A stretch of 56,949 bases of DNA from Candidatus Iainarchaeum sp. (GTDB lineage Archaea; Iainarchaeota; Iainarchaeia; Iainarchaeales; VGJJ01): the NCBI GenBank assembly GCA_043803765.1, contig JAZDJQ010000016.1, positions 1 through 56,949 on the forward strand, given 5' to 3'. Made by a program: the position numbers and the translations under genes. The notes below the pieces were generated by a model. That model was not told the DNA's origin, ran no database searches, and saw nothing but the letters and a program-made list of their open reading frames with translations. Shown one piece after another: positions 14,283 through 56,745 of this stretch (the stretch's first letter is position 1; each line of letters starts with the position of its first letter).

Positions 14283-14471
14283 CACTTTTATAAGGGAAGG
14301 GCATCCTATGTTCAGTAGCATTCGATACACCGAGTTTGAATACATGAATTCATTTCACACTACCCCTTTTTGTTATTTTTTCATTCCATTACGAAAAATG
14401 ACCACATTATTCTTTTCAGGAATTTTGAGCAAAATTCCATTAAACCCATTTTGGAGATTGGAGGAAATACT

Positions 14472-14825
14472 ATGATGAATGAACAGAACCCCTATCGTGA
14501 ATCCCGAAGGAGAGACTTTGGACCGGTTCCAGTAAAGGAAGGAGAAACCTATGAAGTTACTATCGAAGGCATAGGAGAAAAAGGAGATGGTATTGCCAAA
14601 ATCCAAGGGTTTGTGATTGTCGTACCTAAAACACAACAAGGACAACACGTCAAAGTACGGATTACCGCCGTGCGGGGAAAAGTAGCATTTGGCGAAGTGG
14701 TGGGAACTGCCGATTCTGCAATGGAAGATAATTCACTCCAAAATGAGGAAGCAACACTTCCAACCACTCCTGATGAAGAAATAGAGGATGATTCCCTAAC
14801 AGAAGCGGAAGAAGAAAACGAATAA
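14472..14825 (+). CDS. Single TRAM-domain RNA chaperone
   Basis: PVKEGETYEVTIEGIGEKGDGIAKIQGFVIVVP; acidic tail; GGAGG SD. Confidence 0.92.
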   Translation: MMNEQNPYRESRRRDFGPVPVKEGETYEVTIEGIGEKGDGIAKIQGFVIVVPKTQQGQHVKVRITAVRGKVAFGEVVGTADSAMEDNSLQNEEATLPTTPDEEIEDDSLTEAEEENE

Positions 14826-14881: not shown

Positions 14882-14930
14882 TACATCAAACCGTTTTAAT
14901 TTCTAAACTTTTTTCGAACGGTTTGCTATC
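14882..14930. repeat. Solo copy of 49-bp palindromic dispersed element (unit B)
   Basis: Reverse complement matches units at 28390-28438 and 50578-50626. Confidence 0.85.
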
Positions 14931-14931
14931 A

Positions 14932-15690
14932 TTATTTTTTCTTACGTTTCTTTAGCTTACGCGCCGGTGCATTACTATTTGATAGCTGGCTTTTTCGAGT
15001 GTTTCCTAATACTCCGCTTGAACGCACTGTTTCACTCATCACAATGTACAATGTCATCCACCACAAATAGGACGCAATGCCAAGGAAGACAACCGACAAT
15101 GCATTAAACTCGGGAAGAGAAAGAAGCGTGACAATTCCCACAAGAACAATTCCATACCCTATCATCAGAATCCAAGAAATCCAATACTTGGCTGTTCCCA
15201 CTACGCGCAAAATCTTTTCAAATGAAAACGCACTGCTCACTCTCTTGTCATGCGCATACAATTGTACTCCTACCGGCAACATAATTGCCGCGATAATGAA
15301 CAAAAATAGCGCGATCGACCCAATAATGGCTCCTCCAATAGCAAGAAACATTACTCCTTGCACGGACGCTCCAATATTGAGCGGAATATTACGAATGATT
15401 TCCATAATCAAAGGAAGAGATGCCGCCGCCCCGAACAATAATACAAGAAGCGCGGGCAAAAAGAACAAAATAGCAATAACAAAAACAATCAATCCCGAAA
15501 GAAAAGAATCAACAAAGTCATCAAACATGGGCATGCGGTCATTCTGATGAAATGTCCTCCGGGAGAGTTCAATCCCTAACCCGTGCAACAAAGGCCTTGT
15601 TGGAGGAAAAATGGCAAACAACACCCCTAGCACAATCGTCACGGGATCCGCCCGCAAGGGCCGCTTGACCGCCTCAACAAAATCAACCAT
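14932..15690 (-). CDS. DUF4013-like multi-pass membrane protein
   Basis: MVDFVEAVKRP, MPMFDDF, SAFSFEKILR, several TM helices; GGAGG SD. Confidence 0.7.
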   Translation of the reverse strand: MVDFVEAVKRPLRADPVTIVLGVLFAIFPPTRPLLHGLGIELSRRTFHQNDRMPMFDDFVDSFLSGLIVFVIAILFFLPALLVLLFGAAASLPLIMEIIRNIPLNIGASVQGVMFLAIGGAIIGSIALFLFIIAAIMLPVGVQLYAHDKRVSSAFSFEKILRVVGTAKYWISWILMIGYGIVLVGIVTLLSLPEFNALSVVFLGIASYLWWMTLYIVMSETVRSSGVLGNTRKSQLSNSNAPARKLKKRKKK

Positions 15691-15821
15691 TTCTGATTCC
15701 TCCTTCCAGTATGAAGTAACTAATCCCAGCAACGGGTTGCCGTTTATAAACCACTTCCTTTTTCACTCTACGTGAAATACCCCTCTTCTATTAAATGGAG
15801 AATTAAACACAAGGAGTAAGC

Positions 15822-22234: not shown

Positions 22235-22340
22235 AACCTACTAATTTAGTAGGAATTAGTAGATATTAGTAGTGGTCCAAACTATTTAAAGCTATACGCA
22301 AAACCTACTAATTTAGTAGGAATTAGTAGATATTAGTAGT
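22235..22340. repeat. Two perfect 39-bp direct repeats, each with an internal palindrome, flanking the fic TATA box
   Basis: AACCTACTAATTTAGTAGGAATTAGTAGATATTAGTAGT at 22235-22273 and 22302-22340; 28-nt spacer contains TATTTAAA. Confidence 0.9.
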
Positions 22341-22531
22341 TGGGCAAAATGAGGTGGAAATACCTTCTGGTGGAGGCGCTTATACTATTCTAGCAAACTG
22401 CCAATCAATTTTTCCATACAGGATTCCATTAGTTGGTTAATCGAATTAGTAATAGGATCTAGATTATGGCGGACCATCCAATGTAGAGGCGAGATGCTCA
22501 TTTATATCCTTTTTCAAGACCCATTCTGCGT

Positions 22532-25833: not shown

Positions 25834-27545
25834 ATGCATACTATTACGCATGATATTCTCATTATTGGAGGAGGTTTAGCCGGACAACGCGCAGCCATTG
25901 AAGCAAGAAACATGGGAATGAACGTGGGAATCGTTTCAAAAGTCCACCCGGTACGCAGTCCCAGTGTGGCAGCTACTGGAGGAATCAATGCCGCACTAGG
26001 AGAGAAAGATAATTGGAAAGACCACTTTCACGACACGGTATACGGAAGTGACTTCCTAGGAGATCAGGATGCGATACGCATTCTATGCAAGGATGCTCCT
26101 ACCCGAGTAAAAGAACTCGAATCATGGGGCGTCGTTTTTTCCCACACAAAAAAGGAACGATTGCCCAGCGATTATCCGGGGGACAAAAAATTTCCCGCAC
26201 CTGCTATGCAGTAGAAGGAACAGGACACATGCTTTTGCATACGCTGTATGACCAGCTCATGAAAACAAAGACTACTATTTATCCAGAACATTACTGCCTC
26301 TCTCTCCTACTTGATACGGAAGGATGCCACGGTGCAGTCCTATGGGACATTGTGCACGGAAAAATAATCACCGCACGAGCAAAAGCAACATTGCTCGCAA
26401 CAGGAGGATGCGGAAAGATATTCGCTACTACGAGTAATGCACGCACTAGTACTGGAGATGGACTTGCCCTCGCCTATCATGCGGGGATTCCTCTGGAAGA
26501 CATGGAAATGATCCAATTCCACCCCACTGGAATGTATGGAAAAGGATTCATTGTGAGTGAAGCATCACGAGGAGAAGGAGCATTTTTGCTCAATGCCAAC
26601 GGGGAACGATTTATGAAAAAATACGCTCCACAGAAAATGGAACTTGCCCCTTTTGACGTAGCAGCGCGAGGGATTGCAATGGAAATACTCCAAGGGAAAG
26701 GAGCAGGCTCCAAAAAAGACCACGTGTTTATTGACATGCGACCATTAGGAAAAGAAAAAATAACGGAACGCGTTCCAGAAATACACCAAACCGTGCGCGA
26801 ACAATTAGGGATAGACTGTACAAAAGACCTTATTCCTATTACCCCAACCGCTCATTACAGTATGGGGGGCATCCCCACCGATACCCAAACACGCGTAACC
26901 ATGAATGAACATGCTTCTCCAGTAAAAGGACTATACGCCGCAGGAGAAGTGGCCTGCCTATCGGTGCATGGTGCAAATCGCCTGGGAGGAAATTCCCTGC
27001 TAGAAACCCAAGTATTCGGCCGCATCGCAGGAATCGAAATGAGCGAATACGCCCGACAAAAAAAGACACAAACAAAAATAGACGAAACACGATTCATCGA
27101 ACAAGCCATGAAACGAATTGAAATGCTTCTCCAAAACAGCAAAGGAAGCAAATCCAATGCCATTCAAGAAAAACTACAAGAAACCATGATGAAAGACTGC
27201 GGAATATTCCGAAACAAGGAAGGGTTGCAGCGAGGGATACGCATACGTTCCCAATTAGCAAAAGATGCCGCAACGATCCATGTTGAAGACAAAGGAATGG
27301 AATTCAACACCGACTTGATTAATGCTATCGAAACACAAAACATGGTGACTTTCTCCCAAGCTATCCTGGAAAGCGCACTCGCACGAAGAGAAAGCAGAGG
27401 AAGCCACTACCGAACCGATTATCCCACACGAAACGATGAAGGGTGGATGAAACATATCCTTTGCGTGCAAAAAGGAGAAAAACCAATGATTTCATACAAA
27501 AAGGTGGTGATAGCAGGATATGCCCCCGAAAAACGCCACTACTAG
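25834..27545 (+). CDS. sdhA: SdhA/FrdA-like flavoprotein split by a -1 frameshift at 26148-26154 (recoding, pseudogene or assembly error)
   Basis: ORF1 has GGGLAG and GGINAA; ORF2 has QFHPT, RGEG, HYSMGG, HGANRLGGNSL, ESRGSHYR; frames join at ACA AAA AAG. Confidence 0.8.
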
Positions 27546-28341
27546 AAGCAAAAAAAACAAGCAAAAGAAAAAGAATGCCCTTTCACAAGAAGAAAGAAAC
27601 ACTCCTCATTCTCAAAAAAAAGTTGTCTTACCCGTTTCCCCATTACATGTAAGAATTTATCGATTCAATCCCCACCTCGATTTCTCCCCACGAACACACG
27701 AATACAAACTAGTAGAAAAAGAAGGAGAAAGCATACTCGATTTACTTACACGCATTAAACACACGCAAGACGGAAGCCTAACCTACCGAGGAAACTGCGG
27801 AAATGGAAAATGCGGAGCATGCGGAATAAAAGTAAATGGAAAAGAAGTATTAGGATGCCTAACCAAAGTGAAAGATGTCATCGATACACACAACGGACTG
27901 CGCATCGACCCACTGCATGAAAAAGTATTGAAAGACTTGGCAGTGGATGAAACCAGTTTTTTCAATGAATTAATGAGTGTTAAACCCTGGATGGTACTCC
28001 GGCCGAATGATGCTAAACGAAAAAATAGAATAGGGAAAAAAGAAGTGGACGCTTTGGACAAAACAGCATTCTGCAACTTGTGCGGAATATGCACGGCAGC
28101 TACCGGAACATCGTTCAATGGAAAACTAGGCCCCGCATCCATAGTGAAAGCGTATCGCTACATTCACGATTCTCGAGATGGAGATGTTGAAAGAATCAAC
28201 CAATTAACAGAAGCATTTCCCGTATCGTATTCTATTAGTCTAGCGGACACGTGCCCGCGCGATATCCATCCTGGAAAAAAAACCCAATTACTGGAAAAAG
28301 AAACAAAACGCATGATGGAAAGAAAGAAACTTTCACCGTAA
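27520..28341 (+). CDS. sdhB: SdhB/FrdB-like Fe-S subunit, degenerate
   Basis: IYRFNP, CGNGKCGAC 2Fe-2S motif, LKDLAVD, CNLCGIC; later cluster Cys residues missing. Confidence 0.8.
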   Translation: MPPKNATTRSKKNKQKKKNALSQEERNTPHSQKKVVLPVSPLHVRIYRFNPHLDFSPRTHEYKLVEKEGESILDLLTRIKHTQDGSLTYRGNCGNGKCGACGIKVNGKEVLGCLTKVKDVIDTHNGLRIDPLHEKVLKDLAVDETSFFNELMSVKPWMVLRPNDAKRKNRIGKKEVDALDKTAFCNLCGICTAATGTSFNGKLGPASIVKAYRYIHDSRDGDVERINQLTEAFPVSYSISLADTCPRDIHPGKKTQLLEKETKRMMERKKLSP

Positions 28342-28343
28342 AA

Positions 28344-28438
28344 TATAGCAAAAAGCACAAGTATTTGAACAGTTAACTGGCTTTTTGCATATAACAAACC
28401 GTCCGAAAAAAGTTCAAAAATCAAAACGGTTTGCTATA
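28344..28438. repeat. Inverted doublet (A+B) of TATAG-ended palindromic element, MITE/BIME-like
   Basis: About 90% identical by hand alignment to 50531-50626. Confidence 0.88.
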
Positions 28439-28491
28439 ATTCAGATTGGAGAGGGCATCATTAAAAAGAAAAAGAGAAAATATGTTTCCAC

Positions 28492-28920
28492 ATGGTCTTT
28501 CGATATTTCACTCTAGAAGAGGCAGAGTGCACGCTTCCAAAAGTTAAACGCCACATGACACGCCTCATGAGTGTACACGATGAACTGACTGCATTATCGG
28601 GAGTAAAAATAAGTGCGGACCCATACGATTGGACAACCCACTTACTTGCTATCAATATCAACAAACGCTACCATGAATTATCATTCAAGTATTTTGCCGA
28701 ACTCGAGTCTCTCACAAAAATAGGGTGCTACGTTAAAGACGTGCAACAAGGATTAGTTGATTTCTATTCCAAGATGGGACAAAAAGATATTCTGCTATCC
28801 TGGCAATACGATGAACCCAATTTGTTATATTACCACGACGAGTCCTCTGGAGTGAACCGGCGTATTCCCATTTCCAAACTACGACAAAAATTATTCGAGC
28901 AACAACACGCATTACTTTAA
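28492..28920 (+). CDS. DUF2203 family protein
   Basis: RYFTLEEA, VKDVQQGLVDF, LSWQYDE, YYH...RRIPI. Confidence 0.85.
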   Translation: MVFRYFTLEEAECTLPKVKRHMTRLMSVHDELTALSGVKISADPYDWTTHLLAININKRYHELSFKYFAELESLTKIGCYVKDVQQGLVDFYSKMGQKDILLSWQYDEPNLLYYHDESSGVNRRIPISKLRQKLFEQQHALL

Positions 28921-46206: not shown

Positions 46207-48957
46207 ATGGGTCGAAAAGAAGACATGGCAAATGCCGCACAAAAACTAATGTCCAACCAACAAGATGTTCGAAATATTGGAATCGTAGCCCACATCGATC
46301 ACGGAAAATGCGTGGGCCCGGATACCCGCTTGTTGTTCGCGGATGGAAACGTTGAAACTGCTCAAACTATTTTTGAAACCCTTTCCAAAAAAGGAAAAAT
46401 TGTTCGCGAAAACCAAAACGAAACCGTCTATGAACTACCTGATGAAACAACTCCTGTTTTCTCTTTAAACAAAAACACGGGACGCATCGAGCGAAAACCC
46501 ATCTCACATGTTTGGAAATTGAAAGGAGGAAAAACGTTCAAGGTGACGCTTCGAAATGGGGCGACGGTTGAAACAACTCCCGAACACCCTTACCTTATTT
46601 TCAATGGAAATGATTTTATTGAAAAGGAAGCGCGAGCATTAAAATTAGGCGAAAAAATATTGGGAATCGACAATTGGCTTGAGCAATCAACGAGCCAAAA
46701 AGAAGAAAAAAACACAAATTCCAAAATTCTATTAATGGTTAAAAATGAATTGAGGGTAACCGAAAGCGAAATAGTCGATATTCAGGAAAGCCATCAGGAC
46801 ATTGTGTATGATTTTACTATTCCCGAAAACCACAATTTTGTCGCAGAAGGTGTGTTTATCCGTAATACTACAATGAGTGATAATCTCATCGCAGCAGCAG
46901 GGTTGATCAACAAGGAACTGGCAGGAAAACAACAATTCATGGATTTTGAAGACCAAGAACAGGACCGCGGAATTACAATTAACGCAGCCAATATTTCACT
47001 CGTTCCCTTGGTGAATGGAAAGCATTACTTACTCAATCTAATTGATACGCCCGGACATGTTGATTTTGGAGGAGAAGTTATTCGTGCCATGCGAGCCGTA
47101 GACGGTGTTGTATTGGTCGTGGATGCCGTAGAAGGAGTCATGCCTCAAACCGAAACAGTTATTCGTCAAGCATTGCGCGAGAATGTCAAACCCACTCTTT
47201 TCATCAACAAAGTGGACCGACTCATTAACGAGTTGCAGGTGGATGAAGCGGAAATGCAACGACGTTTCGTAAAAACAATAACCCAAGTAAATCAGCTCAT
47301 CCAAAAAAATGCCCCCGAAGGAAAAGAGGAATTATGGCAAGTCAATCCAGCAATAGGAAGCGTAGCATTCGGAAGCGCGTATCACCACTGGGCGGTTTCA
47401 ACCAAAAGCATGGCACGCACCGGAATCAATTTCAAAAAAGTATATGAGTGGATGAAAAACGACCAACAAAAAGAACTATCCAACAAATCCCCATTGGAAG
47501 ATACCATCTTTGAGATGATCGTGGAACATCTCCCCAATCCAATTGAAGCACAAAAATACCGCACCCCTGTTATTTGGGCAGGAGACCTAGAAAGCGAAGT
47601 AGGAAAAAGCATGCTCACATGCAATCCGCATGGAGAGGTTGCCATGATGGTAACCGATGTTTCAGTGGACCCACACGCAGGGGATATTGCAACAGGACGA
47701 GTGTACTCTGGAACAATAAAAAAAGGAGTAAAAGTCAAACTCATCGGATTGCAAAAAGAAGCACTCGTTAACCGTGTAGGAGTATACATGGGACAGGACT
47801 TTGTAGAAGTCGAATCAATTCCCGCAGGATGTATCGGAGCAATAGTAGGATTACGCGAAGCATACGCCGGACAAACCGTAGCACAGAATGATATTCACGA
47901 ATTTGAAAGTTTTAAGACAAACGTTGAACCCGTTATCACGATTTCAATTGAAGCAAAACAAACAAAGGATTTGCCAAAATTGATTGAAGTGATACGACAA
48001 CTTACAAAGGAAGACCCTAACCTGCGCGCAAGCATCAATCAAACAACAGGAGAACACTTGCTTTCAGGAATGGGGGAACTACATCTTGAAATCAACCAGT
48101 ATCGTATCGAGAAAACACACGGCGTGCCTATCACGGTTTCCCAACCCATTGTCGTATATCACGAAACGATTCAAATGCCTTCCCCCGAATTAGAAGGAAA
48201 ATCCCCAAACAAACACAACAAACTACTCATGAAAGTAGAACCCATTCCCAAAGCCATTTTGGAAAAACTCATGTACAATAAAGTACAAGGAAAAGTAAAA
48301 ATCAAAGACAAAGAATGGGTGGACAAGTTTGTGAACGCAGGAATTGACAACGATGAGGCAAAAAAGATTTGGTGTATTGAGAACTATAATTTGCTCGTGG
48401 ATGGAACAAAAGGAATACAAGCATTACACGAAATTCGTGAATTGGTAATCCAAGGATTCCAAGAAACAATGAAAGAAGGACCATTAGGAAAAGAAGAAGT
48501 GCACGGAATCAAAGTCACATTGACGGATGCCAAGTTGCACGAAGACGCGATCCACCGCGGTCCCTCGCAAATTATTCCCGTCGTATCACGCACCATTTAT
48601 GCCTGTATGCTATCCGCCAAGGCCGTTTTCCAAGAACCAAAACAATTACTCTCCATCAACGTTCCTGAAGAATACATGGGAGCCGTAACAAAAGAATTGC
48701 AGCAACGCCGCGTACAAATAACCGAAATCAAAAACGAAGGAGACCAAGTCATTATTATCGGCCTTGCGCCTGTGAAAGAATTAATCGGATTCTCCCAAGC
48801 CATTCGGGGAGCGGCCCAAGGGCGCGTGATTTGGACAGCCGAATACCACGGATACGAGATACTTCCCACGGAATTACAGAAGAAAACAATCGAAGAAGTA
48901 CGCAAAAGAAAAGGAATGGACCCCGAAGTCAAACACTACAGCTTCTTCTTGGAGTAA
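46207..48957 (+). CDS. fusA: Elongation factor EF-2, intein-containing
   Basis: AHIDHGK/TT after splicing, RGITI, DTPGHVDF, NKVD; diphthamide loop LHEDAIHRG. Confidence 0.97.
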   Translation: MGRKEDMANAAQKLMSNQQDVRNIGIVAHIDHGKCVGPDTRLLFADGNVETAQTIFETLSKKGKIVRENQNETVYELPDETTPVFSLNKNTGRIERKPISHVWKLKGGKTFKVTLRNGATVETTPEHPYLIFNGNDFIEKEARALKLGEKILGIDNWLEQSTSQKEEKNTNSKILLMVKNELRVTESEIVDIQESHQDIVYDFTIPENHNFVAEGVFIRNTTMSDNLIAAAGLINKELAGKQQFMDFEDQEQDRGITINAANISLVPLVNGKHYLLNLIDTPGHVDFGGEVIRAMRAVDGVVLVVDAVEGVMPQTETVIRQALRENVKPTLFINKVDRLINELQVDEAEMQRRFVKTITQVNQLIQKNAPEGKEELWQVNPAIGSVAFGSAYHHWAVSTKSMARTGINFKKVYEWMKNDQQKELSNKSPLEDTIFEMIVEHLPNPIEAQKYRTPVIWAGDLESEVGKSMLTCNPHGEVAMMVTDVSVDPHAGDIATGRVYSGTIKKGVKVKLIGLQKEALVNRVGVYMGQDFVEVESIPAGCIGAIVGLREAYAGQTVAQNDIHEFESFKTNVEPVITISIEAKQTKDLPKLIEVIRQLTKEDPNLRASINQTTGEHLLSGMGELHLEINQYRIEKTHGVPITVSQPIVVYHETIQMPSPELEGKSPNKHNKLLMKVEPIPKAILEKLMYNKVQGKVKIKDKEWVDKFVNAGIDNDEAKKIWCIENYNLLVDGTKGIQALHEIRELVIQGFQETMKEGPLGKEEVHGIKVTLTDAKLHEDAIHRGPSQIIPVVSRTIYACMLSAKAVFQEPKQLLSINVPEEYMGAVTKELQQRRVQITEIKNEGDQVIIIGLAPVKELIGFSQAIRGAAQGRVIWTAEYHGYEILPTELQKKTIEEVRKRKGMDPEVKHYSFFLE
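46309..46866 (+). mobile_element. Mini-intein (186 aa, no endonuclease) in the EF-2 P-loop
   Basis: Starts CVGPDT; block B TTPEHPY; ends VYDFTIPENHNFVAEGVFIRN before Thr+1. Confidence 0.93.
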
Positions 48958-49878: not shown

Positions 49879-50249
49879 TGAAGTTTTACTTCATGCATTT
49901 TTTCGAAATCGGATCGGTTCTGTGTTACTAATATCGAATTCCACTGCATGGCGGTAGCCCCAATAAAGATATTCCTCATTTCTACTGGATTTCCTTTTCG
50001 TTTCAATTCATTAAATATCCATGCCGCAATGCGTGCGGTTTCTTGGTCGAATGCCACTACTGGTATTTTTTGCAAAAATCGCTCAACGGGCTCCCTATTA
50101 TCCCGTCGTTGCTGCAATTCAAATGCAGTAATTGCACTTACAAACAGATTTTTTTGATTCTTTTCCAAAAGAAGGCTGATTGCGGACTGATTACGACCTT
50201 TCAAAAAATCAATAATGGAACTGGTGTCTAGGCATATCTTTTGTTCCAT
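49872..50249 (-). CDS. vapC: VapC PIN-domain toxin
   Basis: CLDTSSIID, SAITAFEL, IGATA, LVTQNRSDF; overlaps upstream antitoxin. Confidence 0.88.
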   Translation of the reverse strand: MEQKICLDTSSIIDFLKGRNQSAISLLLEKNQKNLFVSAITAFELQQRRDNREPVERFLQKIPVVAFDQETARIAAWIFNELKRKGNPVEMRNIFIGATAMQWNSILVTQNRSDFEKMHEVKLHH

Positions 50250-50464
50250 TTTTTCCAACCTTCTTTGATCCACTTTTCATCTTCTTTGTCTTGAGCGGAG
50301 GAAACCCATGTCCCTTCGAGCGCCATAATCTGGGCTTTTCGGTTTTCCCAATCATCTTTTGCAGACAATTCATCTAACAGTTTGGTGAAACTAATTCCTT
50401 TTGCGTCTTTCAAGCGCCTAAGTTTATCGTATGTTTCATCCGCAATCATAATGGTCTTCGGCAT
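50228..50464 (-). CDS. vapB: Archaeal VapB-type antitoxin
   Basis: MPKTIMIADETYDKLRRLK...SFTKLLDEL RHH-like pattern. Confidence 0.85.
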   Translation of the reverse strand: MPKTIMIADETYDKLRRLKDAKGISFTKLLDELSAKDDWENRKAQIMALEGTWVSSAQDKEDEKWIKEGWKKWNKRYA

Positions 50465-50530: not shown

Positions 50531-50626
50531 TATAGCAAAAAGCCTAAGTATTTGAACAATTTAACGGGCTTTTTGCGTATAGCAAACCGTCCGACAAAAG
50601 TTCAAAAATTAAAACGGTTTGCTATA
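50531..50626. repeat. Inverted doublet (A+B) of TATAG-ended palindromic element
   Basis: TATAGCAAAAAGC...GCTTTTTGCG-TATA-GCAAACCGT...ACGGTTTGCTATA. Confidence 0.88.
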
Positions 50627-50687
50627 TCTGATATATCCGGCGGTTTAGTCTCCCAAAGTATATATGTTGTACGTGGGATATTTGTTT

Positions 50688-51302
50688 ATGGAATTCGAAT
50701 ACTCCGAGGGAAAAATCGTTTTCAATCGAGAACTGACAAATCTGGATAAGCTCGTCCTGAAGTTTTGCGACATCTTGCATCGATTGAACATCAGGTATGT
50801 CATCATATCGGGGTATATCACTATTCTCTTCGGACGCGTGCGAATGACCGATGACGTTGACTTGTTTATTGAAGAATTGCCAATCGAAAGAGTGATTGAA
50901 TTATGGAATTTGCTTGAAAAGGAAGGTTTTGAAGGTGTGTGCACATTTACTCCAGAAGAAGCATTTGAAACATTGAATGATAAAACATCCATCCGATTTG
51001 CCCTCAAAGGAACATGGAAACCCAATTTCGAATTAAAATTTCCAGCCAGTCCCAGCTCCATTTATTCCCTCCGAAAGAAGGTATTGGTGATATTGAATGG
51101 GCGGGAATTATACACATCCGAGATCGAAATGCAAATTGCCTATAAACTGAGGATGACTGGGGATAAAGACCTAGAGGACGCCCTTCATCTCTATTCGGTT
51201 TTTAAGGAACAATTGGACTTATCATTGCTAGAATTCCACATGCAAGACCTTGGGGTTCCACGAGAAAGGGCTGAACAATTATGGAAAAGCGGAAAAAAAT
51301 AA
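50688..51302 (+). CDS. Nucleotidyltransferase-fold protein (DUF6036-like)
   Basis: ISGY...GRVRMTDDVDL; IAYKL...KDLEDA. Confidence 0.75.
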   Translation: MEFEYSEGKIVFNRELTNLDKLVLKFCDILHRLNIRYVIISGYITILFGRVRMTDDVDLFIEELPIERVIELWNLLEKEGFEGVCTFTPEEAFETLNDKTSIRFALKGTWKPNFELKFPASPSSIYSLRKKVLVILNGRELYTSEIEMQIAYKLRMTGDKDLEDALHLYSVFKEQLDLSLLEFHMQDLGVPRERAEQLWKSGKK

Positions 51303-55218: not shown

Positions 55219-56745
55219 ATGCGTTTGATGGTCCTATTAGGAACAGTATTATTGTTATTGGGGTTTCTTGCCCCTGTTGGGTTTGCACAGGGAGCCGACC
55301 CCATTACTATTCGTGCGGAACCCAGTGAACCCATTGTGGATTCCGAACCCGCACAAAGTATTGGAATAGATCGAGGAGAAGCCTCTACTGTTCATGAAGA
55401 TGATTCCCAAATAAACGAGCCCAATTCTTTACCCGCAGAGGAAGCAACTGTTGAATTAAGTGAGTCGGATTCGTCCGATTCCCAGATTCCCCCATCGAAT
55501 GATTCGTCTGTAATTGAAACAAAGCTCTTGCCCACCCTTGGTTCAGCAGGTGATTTGCCGACGACTTGTAGGGTTTCAATTAATCCTCAAACGGGCATTG
55601 TGAAAAAGATTTGTTCAATTAATGGTTCGTTTGATGAAGCACATGATGTTCCAACCAATGTAACGGGCCCCATTAGTGGTTCGTTTGATGAGGCACATGA
55701 TTTGCCTGTTGGTGTTAGCGTAACCGGCCCCATTGGGGGTCCATTTGATGAGGCACATGAAGTTCCCACTACTGCAACGAGTGTTGCAGGTCCATTTAGC
55801 GAAGCCAGCGAACAACCCGTGGTTCAGACGGAATCGCCTTCTACCATTGGCACGATTGAAGATGCCCCCATTTGCATGGTTTCAATTAATTTGCTAACGG
55901 GTGCCATGAATAAGATTTGTCCAATGGACGGTTCGTTTGATGAAGCACATGATGTTCCAACCAATGTAACGGGTCCTATTGATGGACCATTTGATGAGGC
56001 ACATGATTTGCCTGTTGGTGTTAGTGTAACCGGTCCTATTGGTGGTTCGTTTGATGAGGCACATGAGTCGCCTATTATTGGTTCAGCGGATTTGCCGACA
56101 GGCTGTAGGGTTTTAATCGATCCTCAAACGGGCATTGTGAGAAAGATTTGTCCAGTCGATGGTCCGTTTAATGAAGCCGACGAACAACCCGTGGTTGGGA
56201 CGGAATCGCCCTCTACCATTGGCACGATTGAAGATGTTCCGATATGCATGGTTTCAATTAATTTGTTAACCGGTGCCATGAATAAGATTTGTCCAATGGA
56301 CGGTTCGTTTGATGAAGCAAATGATGTTCCAACCAATGTAACGGGTCCTGTTGATGGCCAGTTTGCTGAAGCCACCGACCAGCCTATCAATACTGATAAT
56401 GGCAATGGAACGGACGGGGGAAGCACTGGCGGAAGCGGTTCTTCTTCTGGAGGCGGAGGGGGCGGATCAGGATTCCATTCATTACCTGCTCCTACACCGA
56501 ACGAGACTGAATTACCTGTGTTGCCTTCTCCGGATGCCGGTTCTACCGAATTGGGACCCGATCCTGCTGTTGTGGGACTCGCGGATGGACGTATGGGAGT
56601 AGAAACCCCCACTGGATCACCTGCTCTCGCATCTGATAATCCTATTATTGGATTACTCACAGGAGCCAATGCACCATTAATCGGAATTGGATTATTGGTC
56701 ATTCTGGGTATTGGTCTCTACATTCGCGGACGAAGCGTAGCATAG
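55219..56745 (+). CDS. Repeat-rich acidic cell-surface protein with signal peptide and C-terminal TM anchor
   Basis: MRLMVLLGTVLLLLGFLAPVGFA; ten G(S/P)FDEAH-type motifs; Gly/Ser linker; terminal TM. Confidence 0.85.
   Translation: MRLMVLLGTVLLLLGFLAPVGFAQGADPITIRAEPSEPIVDSEPAQSIGIDRGEASTVHEDDSQINEPNSLPAEEATVELSESDSSDSQIPPSNDSSVIETKLLPTLGSAGDLPTTCRVSINPQTGIVKKICSINGSFDEAHDVPTNVTGPISGSFDEAHDLPVGVSVTGPIGGPFDEAHEVPTTATSVAGPFSEASEQPVVQTESPSTIGTIEDAPICMVSINLLTGAMNKICPMDGSFDEAHDVPTNVTGPIDGPFDEAHDLPVGVSVTGPIGGSFDEAHESPIIGSADLPTGCRVLIDPQTGIVRKICPVDGPFNEADEQPVVGTESPSTIGTIEDVPICMVSINLLTGAMNKICPMDGSFDEANDVPTNVTGPVDGQFAEATDQPINTDNGNGTDGGSTGGSGSSSGGGGGGSGFHSLPAPTPNETELPVLPSPDAGSTELGPDPAVVGLADGRMGVETPTGSPALASDNPIIGLLTGANAPLIGIGLLVILGIGLYIRGRSVA
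55545..56380 (+). repeat. Intragenic mosaic repeats
   Basis: Near-identical DNA blocks, e.g. GGTTCGTTTGATGAAGCACATGATGTTCCAACCAATGTAACGGG recurring. Confidence 0.9.

Follow-up and report, generated by a model that had tools for sequence, protein, structure and literature searches.

We found that a 95-nt block in the genome of an archaeon labelled Candidatus Iainarchaeum is, with a probability of approximately 0.8, one copy of a non-coding and non-autonomous DNA transposon of the MITE/REPIN type. It probably belongs to a family of TA-targeting, MITE/REPIN-like elements that is apparently undescribed. The block occupies positions 28344–28438 of the window, i.e., the entire stretch of 56,949 nt that was analysed, which corresponds to contig C16 of a genome (G000) of 1.02 Mb in 19 contigs with ~42.5% G+C. 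The original prediction was that of an ultra-short non-autonomous mobile element or a REP-like system. This description agrees with what we found: the copies are dispersed, patchily distributed and placed at non-orthologous sites, and they are nested in one another with a duplication of TA. One part of it had to be changed. The block behaves as a mobile element, but the 49-bp unit is not its sole moving form, since what usually moves is a doublet of ~96 bp or a bigger composite.

The model that best fits these data has the following parts. The basic unit is a perfect palindrome of ~45–48 bp, 5'-TAGCAAA...TTTGCTA-3', usually flanked by TA, with a variable inner stem and a loop of ~20 nt containing TTTGAAC. 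The common mobile form is the ~96-bp doublet, in which a unit A is followed by a unit B in the opposite orientation. Insertion would occur at TA dinucleotides by a 2-bp staggered cut, as in IS630/Tc1-mariner elements. The reaction would be catalysed in trans, and the enzyme responsible would recognise the conserved termini (perhaps also the loop motif) and require complementary arms. Copies would survive in spacers only, typically past a stop codon and ahead of the following promoter, where they may incidentally provide T-runs or TATA-like sequence.

The family is of interest for several reasons. DPANN archaea have genomes of ~1 Mb with very short spacers, and their mobile DNA has received little attention. 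The repeats break assemblies (several copies of the relative G007 are at contig ends) and can be misannotated as promoters, terminators or small RNA genes. They also pose a biochemical question, namely which enzyme can move a hairpin of 45 bp and whether this enzyme recognises the shape of the hairpin.

Anatomy and copy number of the doublet

The window contains two full doublets and one solo unit. The doublet at 28344..28438 (plus strand) is made of unit A at 28344–28391 (stem GCAAAAAGC / GCTTTTTGC, loop with TTTGAAC) and unit B at 28390–28438 (stem ACAAACCGT / ACGGTTTGC(T), loop with GTTCAAA). The second one, at 50531..50626 (plus strand), is made of unit A at 50531–50579 and unit B at 50578–50626. 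A whole-genome search aligned the two doublets with 90.6% identity over 96 nt (E 2e-26), and the recurrence with ~9 differences that had been noticed before is therefore accurate. The solo unit is a unit B at 14882..14930 (minus strand), one terminus of which is degraded (TGATGTA instead of TGCTATA). It had been described as an inverted copy of the right half of the block, and in the same search positions 14887–14925 matched this half on the opposite strand with 89.7% identity. A repeat search of the window also recovered the inverted repeat of the right half, with arms of 48 nt that are 85–88% complementary.

Both the outer ends of the doublet and those of each unit are inverted repeats (TATAGCAAA / TTTGCTATA). 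The layout of unit A is TATAGCAAAAAGCC - loop - GGCTTTTTGCATA, where GCAAAAAGCC pairs with GGCTTTTTGC, and that of unit B is TATAGCAAACCGT - loop - ACGGTTTGCTATA. Terminal inverted repeats of ~13 bp had been noted, and the arms TATAGCAAACCGT / ACGGTTTGCTATA of the unit B at 50578–50626 form a perfect inverted repeat of 13 bp. Neighbouring units do share one TATA: they overlap in TA(TA) at 28390–28393 and at 50578–50581. The elements are 95–96 bp long, their units of ~48 bp have no ORF of their own, and the arms of the window copy contain T5 runs.

The pattern TAGCAAA-N26-36-TTTGCTA has one exact match in the window, against 0.00 expected from 100 shuffles. Both window doublets fold as two hairpins, with z-scores of -4.75 for DNA and -5.47 for RNA (200 shuffles). 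Together with the 16 loci found by the profile described below, these values exclude an origin of the block by chance. No Rfam family matched the window at gathering thresholds. The best match below threshold was to the sRNA ES056, at 28353–28441 on the minus strand (27.7 bits, with a gathering threshold of 43; E 0.004 in a search of 181 nt), and we take it as a chance resemblance of two-hairpin shapes.

A profile built from eight copies revealed 16 loci genome-wide (E <= 5.5e-5), so the family extends beyond the three loci of the window. They include eight close full doublets, three diverged full ones, two truncated ones, two solo units B and one fragment of unit A; full copies are 83–97% identical to those of the window. 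The loop motif is TTTGAAC in unit A and GTTCAAA in unit B, and a single generic unit pattern matches A in the forward and B in the reverse direction at adjacent positions. This indicates that unit B is a copy of A, inverted and diverged, and that two units in opposite orientations make up the element. All of the eight close full copies in this genome have TA on both sides, where it is indistinguishable from a longer terminal repeat. The left flanks show no conserved target other than TA.

Empty sites, nesting and distribution

If the doublets are mobile, related genomes should show sites with and without them, and a comparison of filled and empty sites had been proposed for this purpose. There are 20 loci in the relatives G004, G006 and G007, and 15 of them have a flank that maps to G000; none of the 15 matching junctions in G000 carries a copy. 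The reverse comparison can be made for the copy at C4:56457, which is located in the spacer that separates an aIF-1A-like gene from its neighbour (127 nt in G000). The element is absent from this spacer in all 15 relatives (0/15). The spacer is ~80–90 nt shorter in eight of them and somewhat longer in two, four have an unrelated insert of ~560 nt with two ORFs, and in the remaining one the left gene is missing from the locus. When the element and one TA are removed from C4:56457, what is left is a 34-nt spacer with a TTATTAAGG box that, by inspection, seems to resemble the TTATTA boxes of the relatives. Another case is a G007 copy placed directly past the stop of an Lrp-like gene, where G000 has a plain spacer of 70 nt. 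Empty sites were thus found in relatives, but the flanks of these genus-level sites are too diverged for a duplication to be read. At the site orthologous to 28344 the gene order differs in most relatives, and the spacer of G007 is unalignable.

The two-ORF insert is an observation in its own right. It is ~560–680 nt long and occurs at four loci (L271, L277, L279 and L283, in G001, G004, G006 and G016), in the spacer orthologous to C4:56456–56582 of G000. It ends in a conserved GGATCGAACCTATAAATAGTC-like string, of which G003 has a remnant, and looks like a small mobile cassette of two genes.

The duplication could be read in G033, a closed genome of 1.24 Mb from another family. This genome has additional unit types (X, Y and Z) that share the same ends, and X is joined to Y in a doublet, again with complementary loops. 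At five loci the junction between X and Y is ...CATTCGC-TA-GTCGC..., and at five other loci it is ...CATTCGC-TA-[TAGCAAAA...TTTGCTA]-TA-GTCGC..., i.e., an A-B doublet plus one extra TA. The TA duplication is seen directly for this one nested event only, which was subsequently copied. Five loci have the XY doublet inside the loop of another unit A, with different outer flanks, and such composites therefore spread as units. In these the XY doublet is flanked by A-runs and not by TA, and one XABY copy has AA on its left and TA on its right. Bigger nested composites are found at several loci.

Further inserts were observed in doublets of G033 and G007. The Z-type doublets at 613428–613690, 897815–898070 and 783974–784245 of G033 have an insert of ~165 nt in the loop of the second unit. 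It consists of other long hairpins, i.e., a further repeat family is nested in the doublet family. In G007, a doublet subfamily of six loci (L017–L019 and L021–L023), four of them at contig ends, has a 52-nt insert in the 3' arm of unit A. This insert is made of two tight mini-hairpins (11-bp stems and 3-nt loops) and has no visible duplication.

The distribution of the family is patchy. A DNA search of 41 relatives gave matches in six, including G000 itself and one weak match of 25 nt. In the genus, 4 of the 17 genomes carry the family (G000, G004, G006 and G007), and outside of it many copies are present in G033 (62 profile hits). A strict unit pattern was found in 21 of the 215 genomes of the phylum, in 13 of 79 genera, and in all six genomes of family f17, and the reversed pattern, used as a control, had no match in the 215 genomes. 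At least 112 stretches match the unit pattern in a collection with one genome per species. Of the 80 matches listed, 76 are in archaeal MAGs. Their labels include Candidatus Iainarchaeum, archaeon GW2011_AR10, Woesearchaeota, Aenigmatarchaeota, Micrarchaeia, Bilamarchaeaceae and 'uncultured archaeon'. The four bacterial hits among the matches listed are not hairpins. A search of viral contigs with two patterns gave no matches.

Five of the archaeal carrier genomes are not among the 215 of the phylum, so that, insofar as taxonomy and record labels are trustworthy, the family is not restricted to a single phylum. Carriers under different phylum labels share the plan of the doublet, the loop motif and the termini, with very different stems. 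The combination of conserved ends and loop, freely covarying stems and several phylum labels makes the family a marker of gene flow among these episymbionts.

Covariation of the stems and the search for a mobilising enzyme

To study the stems we aligned 46 doublets from the genome, its relatives and the species collection. In the two hairpins 95.1% of the cells are paired, against 81.8% when partners are shuffled, and none of 500 shuffles reached 95.1%. Changes occur on both sides in 17 of the 23 pairs, and 140 compensatory cells were observed where 36.5 were expected. In a control where partners were slid by 1–3 columns, pairing was 35–40%. The 'fixed' foot also covaries in some lineages (GTGAA with TTCAC, TATCAAG with CTTGATA). 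An RNA transcribed from one strand would tolerate G:U, not A:C. The non-Watson-Crick cells are symmetric (13 G:T and 14 A:C among 1027), and this lack of an excess of G:T over A:C suggests that the constraint is one of DNA complementarity and not of RNA from one strand. The complementarity of the arms could reflect a requirement of the moving enzyme or their homogenisation in the hairpin. We also considered a kissing-loop RNA, given the complementary loops, and set it aside: the loops barely vary, which leaves no covariation, and their likeness follows from B being an inverted copy of A.

We then searched for the enzyme. No autonomous element with TAGCAAA ends was found in G000, in the closed G033, or at ~130 loci from other genomes, and the long stretches bounded by unit ends were only pairs of separate small copies. 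The IS630-type domain DDE_3 (PF13358) is absent from the five carrier genomes searched; it is present in 4 of the 151 genomes of the order, where the terminal ends differ from the units. There were also no matches in the five carriers to PF07282, PF01385, PF00665, PF01548 and PF13359 (TnpB, OrfB, rve, IS110 and DDE_Tnp_4). PF01359 had no matches, its control likewise matching nowhere. The window was said to be devoid of transposases, and indeed the two transposase-family matches of the genome are on contigs C4 and C1 and not on the contig of the window. The one on C1 (563–1741) is a DDE_Tnp_1 gene; like a remnant in G033, it was dismissed because its ends are different.

In G033, two copy-rich stretches contain 65 ORFs, including genes for a ribosomal protein, MCM, topoisomerase VI and eRF1. 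All are of housekeeping or unknown function and none is a transposase, and G033 has no multicopy IS-like protein family. The proteins that are most alike between G033 and G000 (TFB, RadA, FtsZ, RFC and TBP) were also inspected, and they are not encoded by mobile genes. Among them, the TFB (TFIIB) of G033 (334622–335527) and that of G000 (C11:12184–13074) are 89.6% identical, when the median is 44% over 452 shared ORFs, an unusual degree of identity even for such a conserved factor.

The proposed check for IS630 or HUH transposases with the same ends gave no such gene, and only a Y1 gene with other ends in the genome. We also considered an alternative that we regard as unlikely, i.e., that the doublets are REPIN/REP-type or IS200/IS605-derived palindromes whose single-stranded hairpins are recognised by a Y1 (HUH) transposase that copies doublets, as RAYTs probably do for bacterial REPINs. 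The doublet is indeed formed by two palindromic units in opposite orientation, there are mosaic clusters, and the stems covary between fixed termini. In the genus, Y1_Tnp (PF01797) is found in only 3 of the 17 genomes, which are the three with the highest copy numbers (G000, G004 and G007), and in none of the 13 genomes that lack the element. In the phylum, it is found in 13 of the 21 carriers and in 43 of the 194 other genomes (odds ratio 5.7; kinship inflates such tables). However, the unrelated DDE_Tnp_1, used as a control, is in 16 of the 21 carriers and 64 of the 194 non-carriers (odds ratio 6.5, inflated by kinship in the same way). Since its enrichment is at least as strong, the association with Y1 looks like a general richness in mobile DNA.

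The location of the Y1 genes also argues against this alternative. A doublet adjoins only 1 of the 24 Y1 loci scanned. In this exception, on a Woesearchaeota-labelled contig (L135/L246, 1321–1834), the doublet abuts the 5' end of the Y1_Tnp ORF. The apparent start of this ORF is only four codons before the conserved H..V.F..KYR strand, so that the gene may have been truncated by the insertion of the doublet. In G000, G004 and G007, the hairpins on either side of the Y1 genes are G+C-rich and unrelated to the TATAG units. In G000 the gene (C4:205–720, locus L012) is a single one of the IS200 type, with HVH and Y..Q motifs, near a contig end and beside a tRNA-like stretch; its flanking hairpins have CTAAAGG-like loops. 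These were tried as a second repeat family and discarded, since there are only three genome-wide. Closed G033, with its 62 profile hits and near-identical composites, has no Y1 gene according to Pfam and to a custom HMM used with filters off, and none was found in G006, G098, G071, G218 and G219. Furthermore, HUH Y1 elements insert without duplication, yet TA was duplicated at the nested insertion, and the left flanks have no conserved target other than TA. A link between Y1 and the doublets is thus not supported.

The doublets were also compared with known repeats. Correia elements (CREE/NEMIS) of Neisseria are flanked by TA and have TATAG-type ends, a likeness to the units that is one of general description, and we know of no transposase assigned to them. 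They are also small, non-coding, intergenic and multicopy, and at full length they form a hairpin. They differ in being bacterial, in their length of 100–200 bp, in their long terminal repeats (26 bp) and IHF site, and in not being doublets of two independent palindromic units. According to PMC10969869, they are often right upstream of genes, where they can act as promoters or RNase III sites, and archaeal MITEs are recorded for Sulfolobus, Halobacterium, Haloquadratum and Desulfurococcus. A census counts MITEs in DPANN genomes (PMC11602168), and its sequences may include the family; in the literature searched we found neither a description of the doublet family nor a described MITE that matches it.

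The REPINs and BIMEs that accompany RAYTs in Proteobacteria have the same inverted two-unit doublets, in mosaic clusters of unit types. They are described with a fixed sequence at the foot of the hairpin and variable but complementary stems (PMC3116915, PMC3337134, PMC6006769). The units described here differ by their nested TA duplication, their archaeal hosts, and the lack of a single-copy Y1 gene flanked by units, with G033 lacking Y1 altogether. Their ends are also different from the GTAG or CGTC tags to which the title of PMC3733652 refers. In a survey of complete genomes, the sole TnpA subclass found in Archaea was that of the IS200 type, REP systems being bacterial (PMC6006769).

PATEs, which derive from IS200/IS605, also have a hairpin near each end and no coding capacity, and are common in archaea. 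Their insertion takes place 3' of a fixed tetra- or pentanucleotide and makes no duplication, and terminal inverted repeats are absent. In contrast, the doublets have inverted-repeat ends, an unconserved left flank and a duplicated TA. IS200/IS605 is given as the most widespread IS family of archaea (PMC13343696). With a duplication and no flanking Y1 gene, the doublet falls outside what defines both REP-RAYT and IS200/IS605 elements.

The doublets also resemble the TA-duplicating MITEs derived from IS630/Tc1-mariner, such as MITEEc1, the eukaryotic Stowaway and SM1 of Sulfolobus. The likeness consists of TA at both ends, which is duplicated at the only insertion where this could be read, together with short terminal inverted repeats, a near-palindromic body and presumed movement in trans. 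In contrast to these MITEs, the units are far shorter (~45 bp) and their inner arms covary instead of being conserved. There is no IS630-type gene in five carriers, and the few in the order have unrelated ends. A cognate transposase, which is a feature of the IS630 class, is thus missing for the doublet family; a cognate autonomous partner is also missing for many accepted MITEs. The doublet works most like a TA-targeting MITE, such as Correia elements or those derived from IS630/Tc1, and is built like a REPIN/BIME.

As a tentative extension of the MITE/REPIN-type reading, an unrecognised DPANN enzyme might read the hairpin or cruciform shape together with the TAGCAAA foot and the TTTGAAC loop, and leave a 2-bp TA duplication. 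The family would then have spread horizontally between DPANN lineages with different phylum labels and persist in the closed G033 of 1.24 Mb, where no intact transposase is recognisable. A reading of shape coupled to TA duplication fits neither DDE-type MITEs nor HUH-type REPINs.

Genomic context of the copies

The context of the copies was assessed with crude ORF calls, for which the longest ORFs of 70 aa or more were taken without overlap (90% coding). With these calls all 16 copies are in spacers. The remark that the copies are intergenic and beside accessory genes thus holds for its first half only. The neighbours are not accessory genes in particular; in the window they include genes for an Fe-S subunit, a DUF2203 protein, a TRAM protein, a DUF4013 protein and a VapBC pair. 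The 28344 copy begins 2 nt past the stop of the gene for the Fe-S subunit of succinate dehydrogenase/fumarate reductase (27520–28341). The DUF2203 gene (28492) starts 53 nt past the end of the element at 28438, and the interval contains a promoter-like TTAAAAAG box that, by inspection, is kept in relatives. The 50531 copy is within a divergent spacer, between vapB (50228–50464, minus strand) and an ORF of 212 aa (50664–51302). The unit at 14882–14930 is in a convergent spacer, between the TRAM-domain gene (14370–14825) and the DUF4013 gene (14932–15732, minus strand), 1 nt from the stop of the latter.

Three features of the copies are left unexplained by a purely selfish element: the bias towards co-orientation with genes, the starts near stop codons, and the conserved loop motif. 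The copy starts less than 20 nt past the upstream stop codon in 9 of the 16 cases, and in three the stop is inside the element. Between tandem genes, and with the same crude ORF calls, the doublet is co-oriented with the genes in 8 cases vs 1 in this genome and in 16 vs 6 in G033 (24 vs 7 when pooled, binomial p 0.003; convergent and divergent spacers are uninformative). The bias may result from selection against the orientation that adds T-runs to the transcript, or from a strand preference at insertion. An orientation by replication strand in G033 was also tried and rejected: the first 23 copies looked replichore-like, but no consistent pattern is left with all 62 hits, and the curve of cumulative GC skew does not close.

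Such features could be expected of a host cis-element that was secondarily repeated, e.g., a bidirectional terminator or 3'-UTR stabiliser hairpin, a small RNA gene, or the site of a DNA-binding protein. The strong fold, the conservation of the TTTGAAC/GTTCAAA loop and of the termini across phylum labels, and the T5 runs in the arms fit this explanation as well, since archaeal transcription terminates at oligo-T tracts. We nevertheless regard it as very unlikely. Only 21 of 215 genomes in the phylum have the element, and in the genus 4 of 17; it shares no site with the sister species (0/15), and is lacking at orthologous genes. Copies are nested in one another, G:T does not exceed A:C in the stems, and there is no Rfam match at threshold (the best, ES056, has 27.7 bits vs 43). 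Finally, by inspection, the downstream genes (the one at 28492 and its counterparts in relatives) keep a promoter-like box of their own past the element. A third explanation, that the copies are operator or promoter sites of one transcription factor and form a regulon, would account for the palindromes and for the two window copies whose ends lie 37 and 53 nt ahead of a start codon, but it is close to refuted by the 6 of 16 copies between convergent genes, the variable distances to the next start (which also speak against fixed promoter positions only), the functionally unrelated neighbours, the patchy distribution, and the nested and truncated copies.

Three other features of the window were observed. 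At 22235–22348 there are two direct repeats of 47 nt, 67 nt apart and 94% identical, and in each of them a palindrome, CCTACTAATTTAGTAGG, precedes AATTAGTAG and ATATTAGTAG. Towards the end of the window, at 55547–56438, there are tandem repeats with periods of ~306 and 372 nt that are 61–90% identical and are probably within a coding sequence. At 46207–48957, an aEF-2-like ORF of 916 aa has, in its translation, an apparent intein-like insert directly after the P-loop (AHIDHGK, then CVGPDTRLLFADG...).
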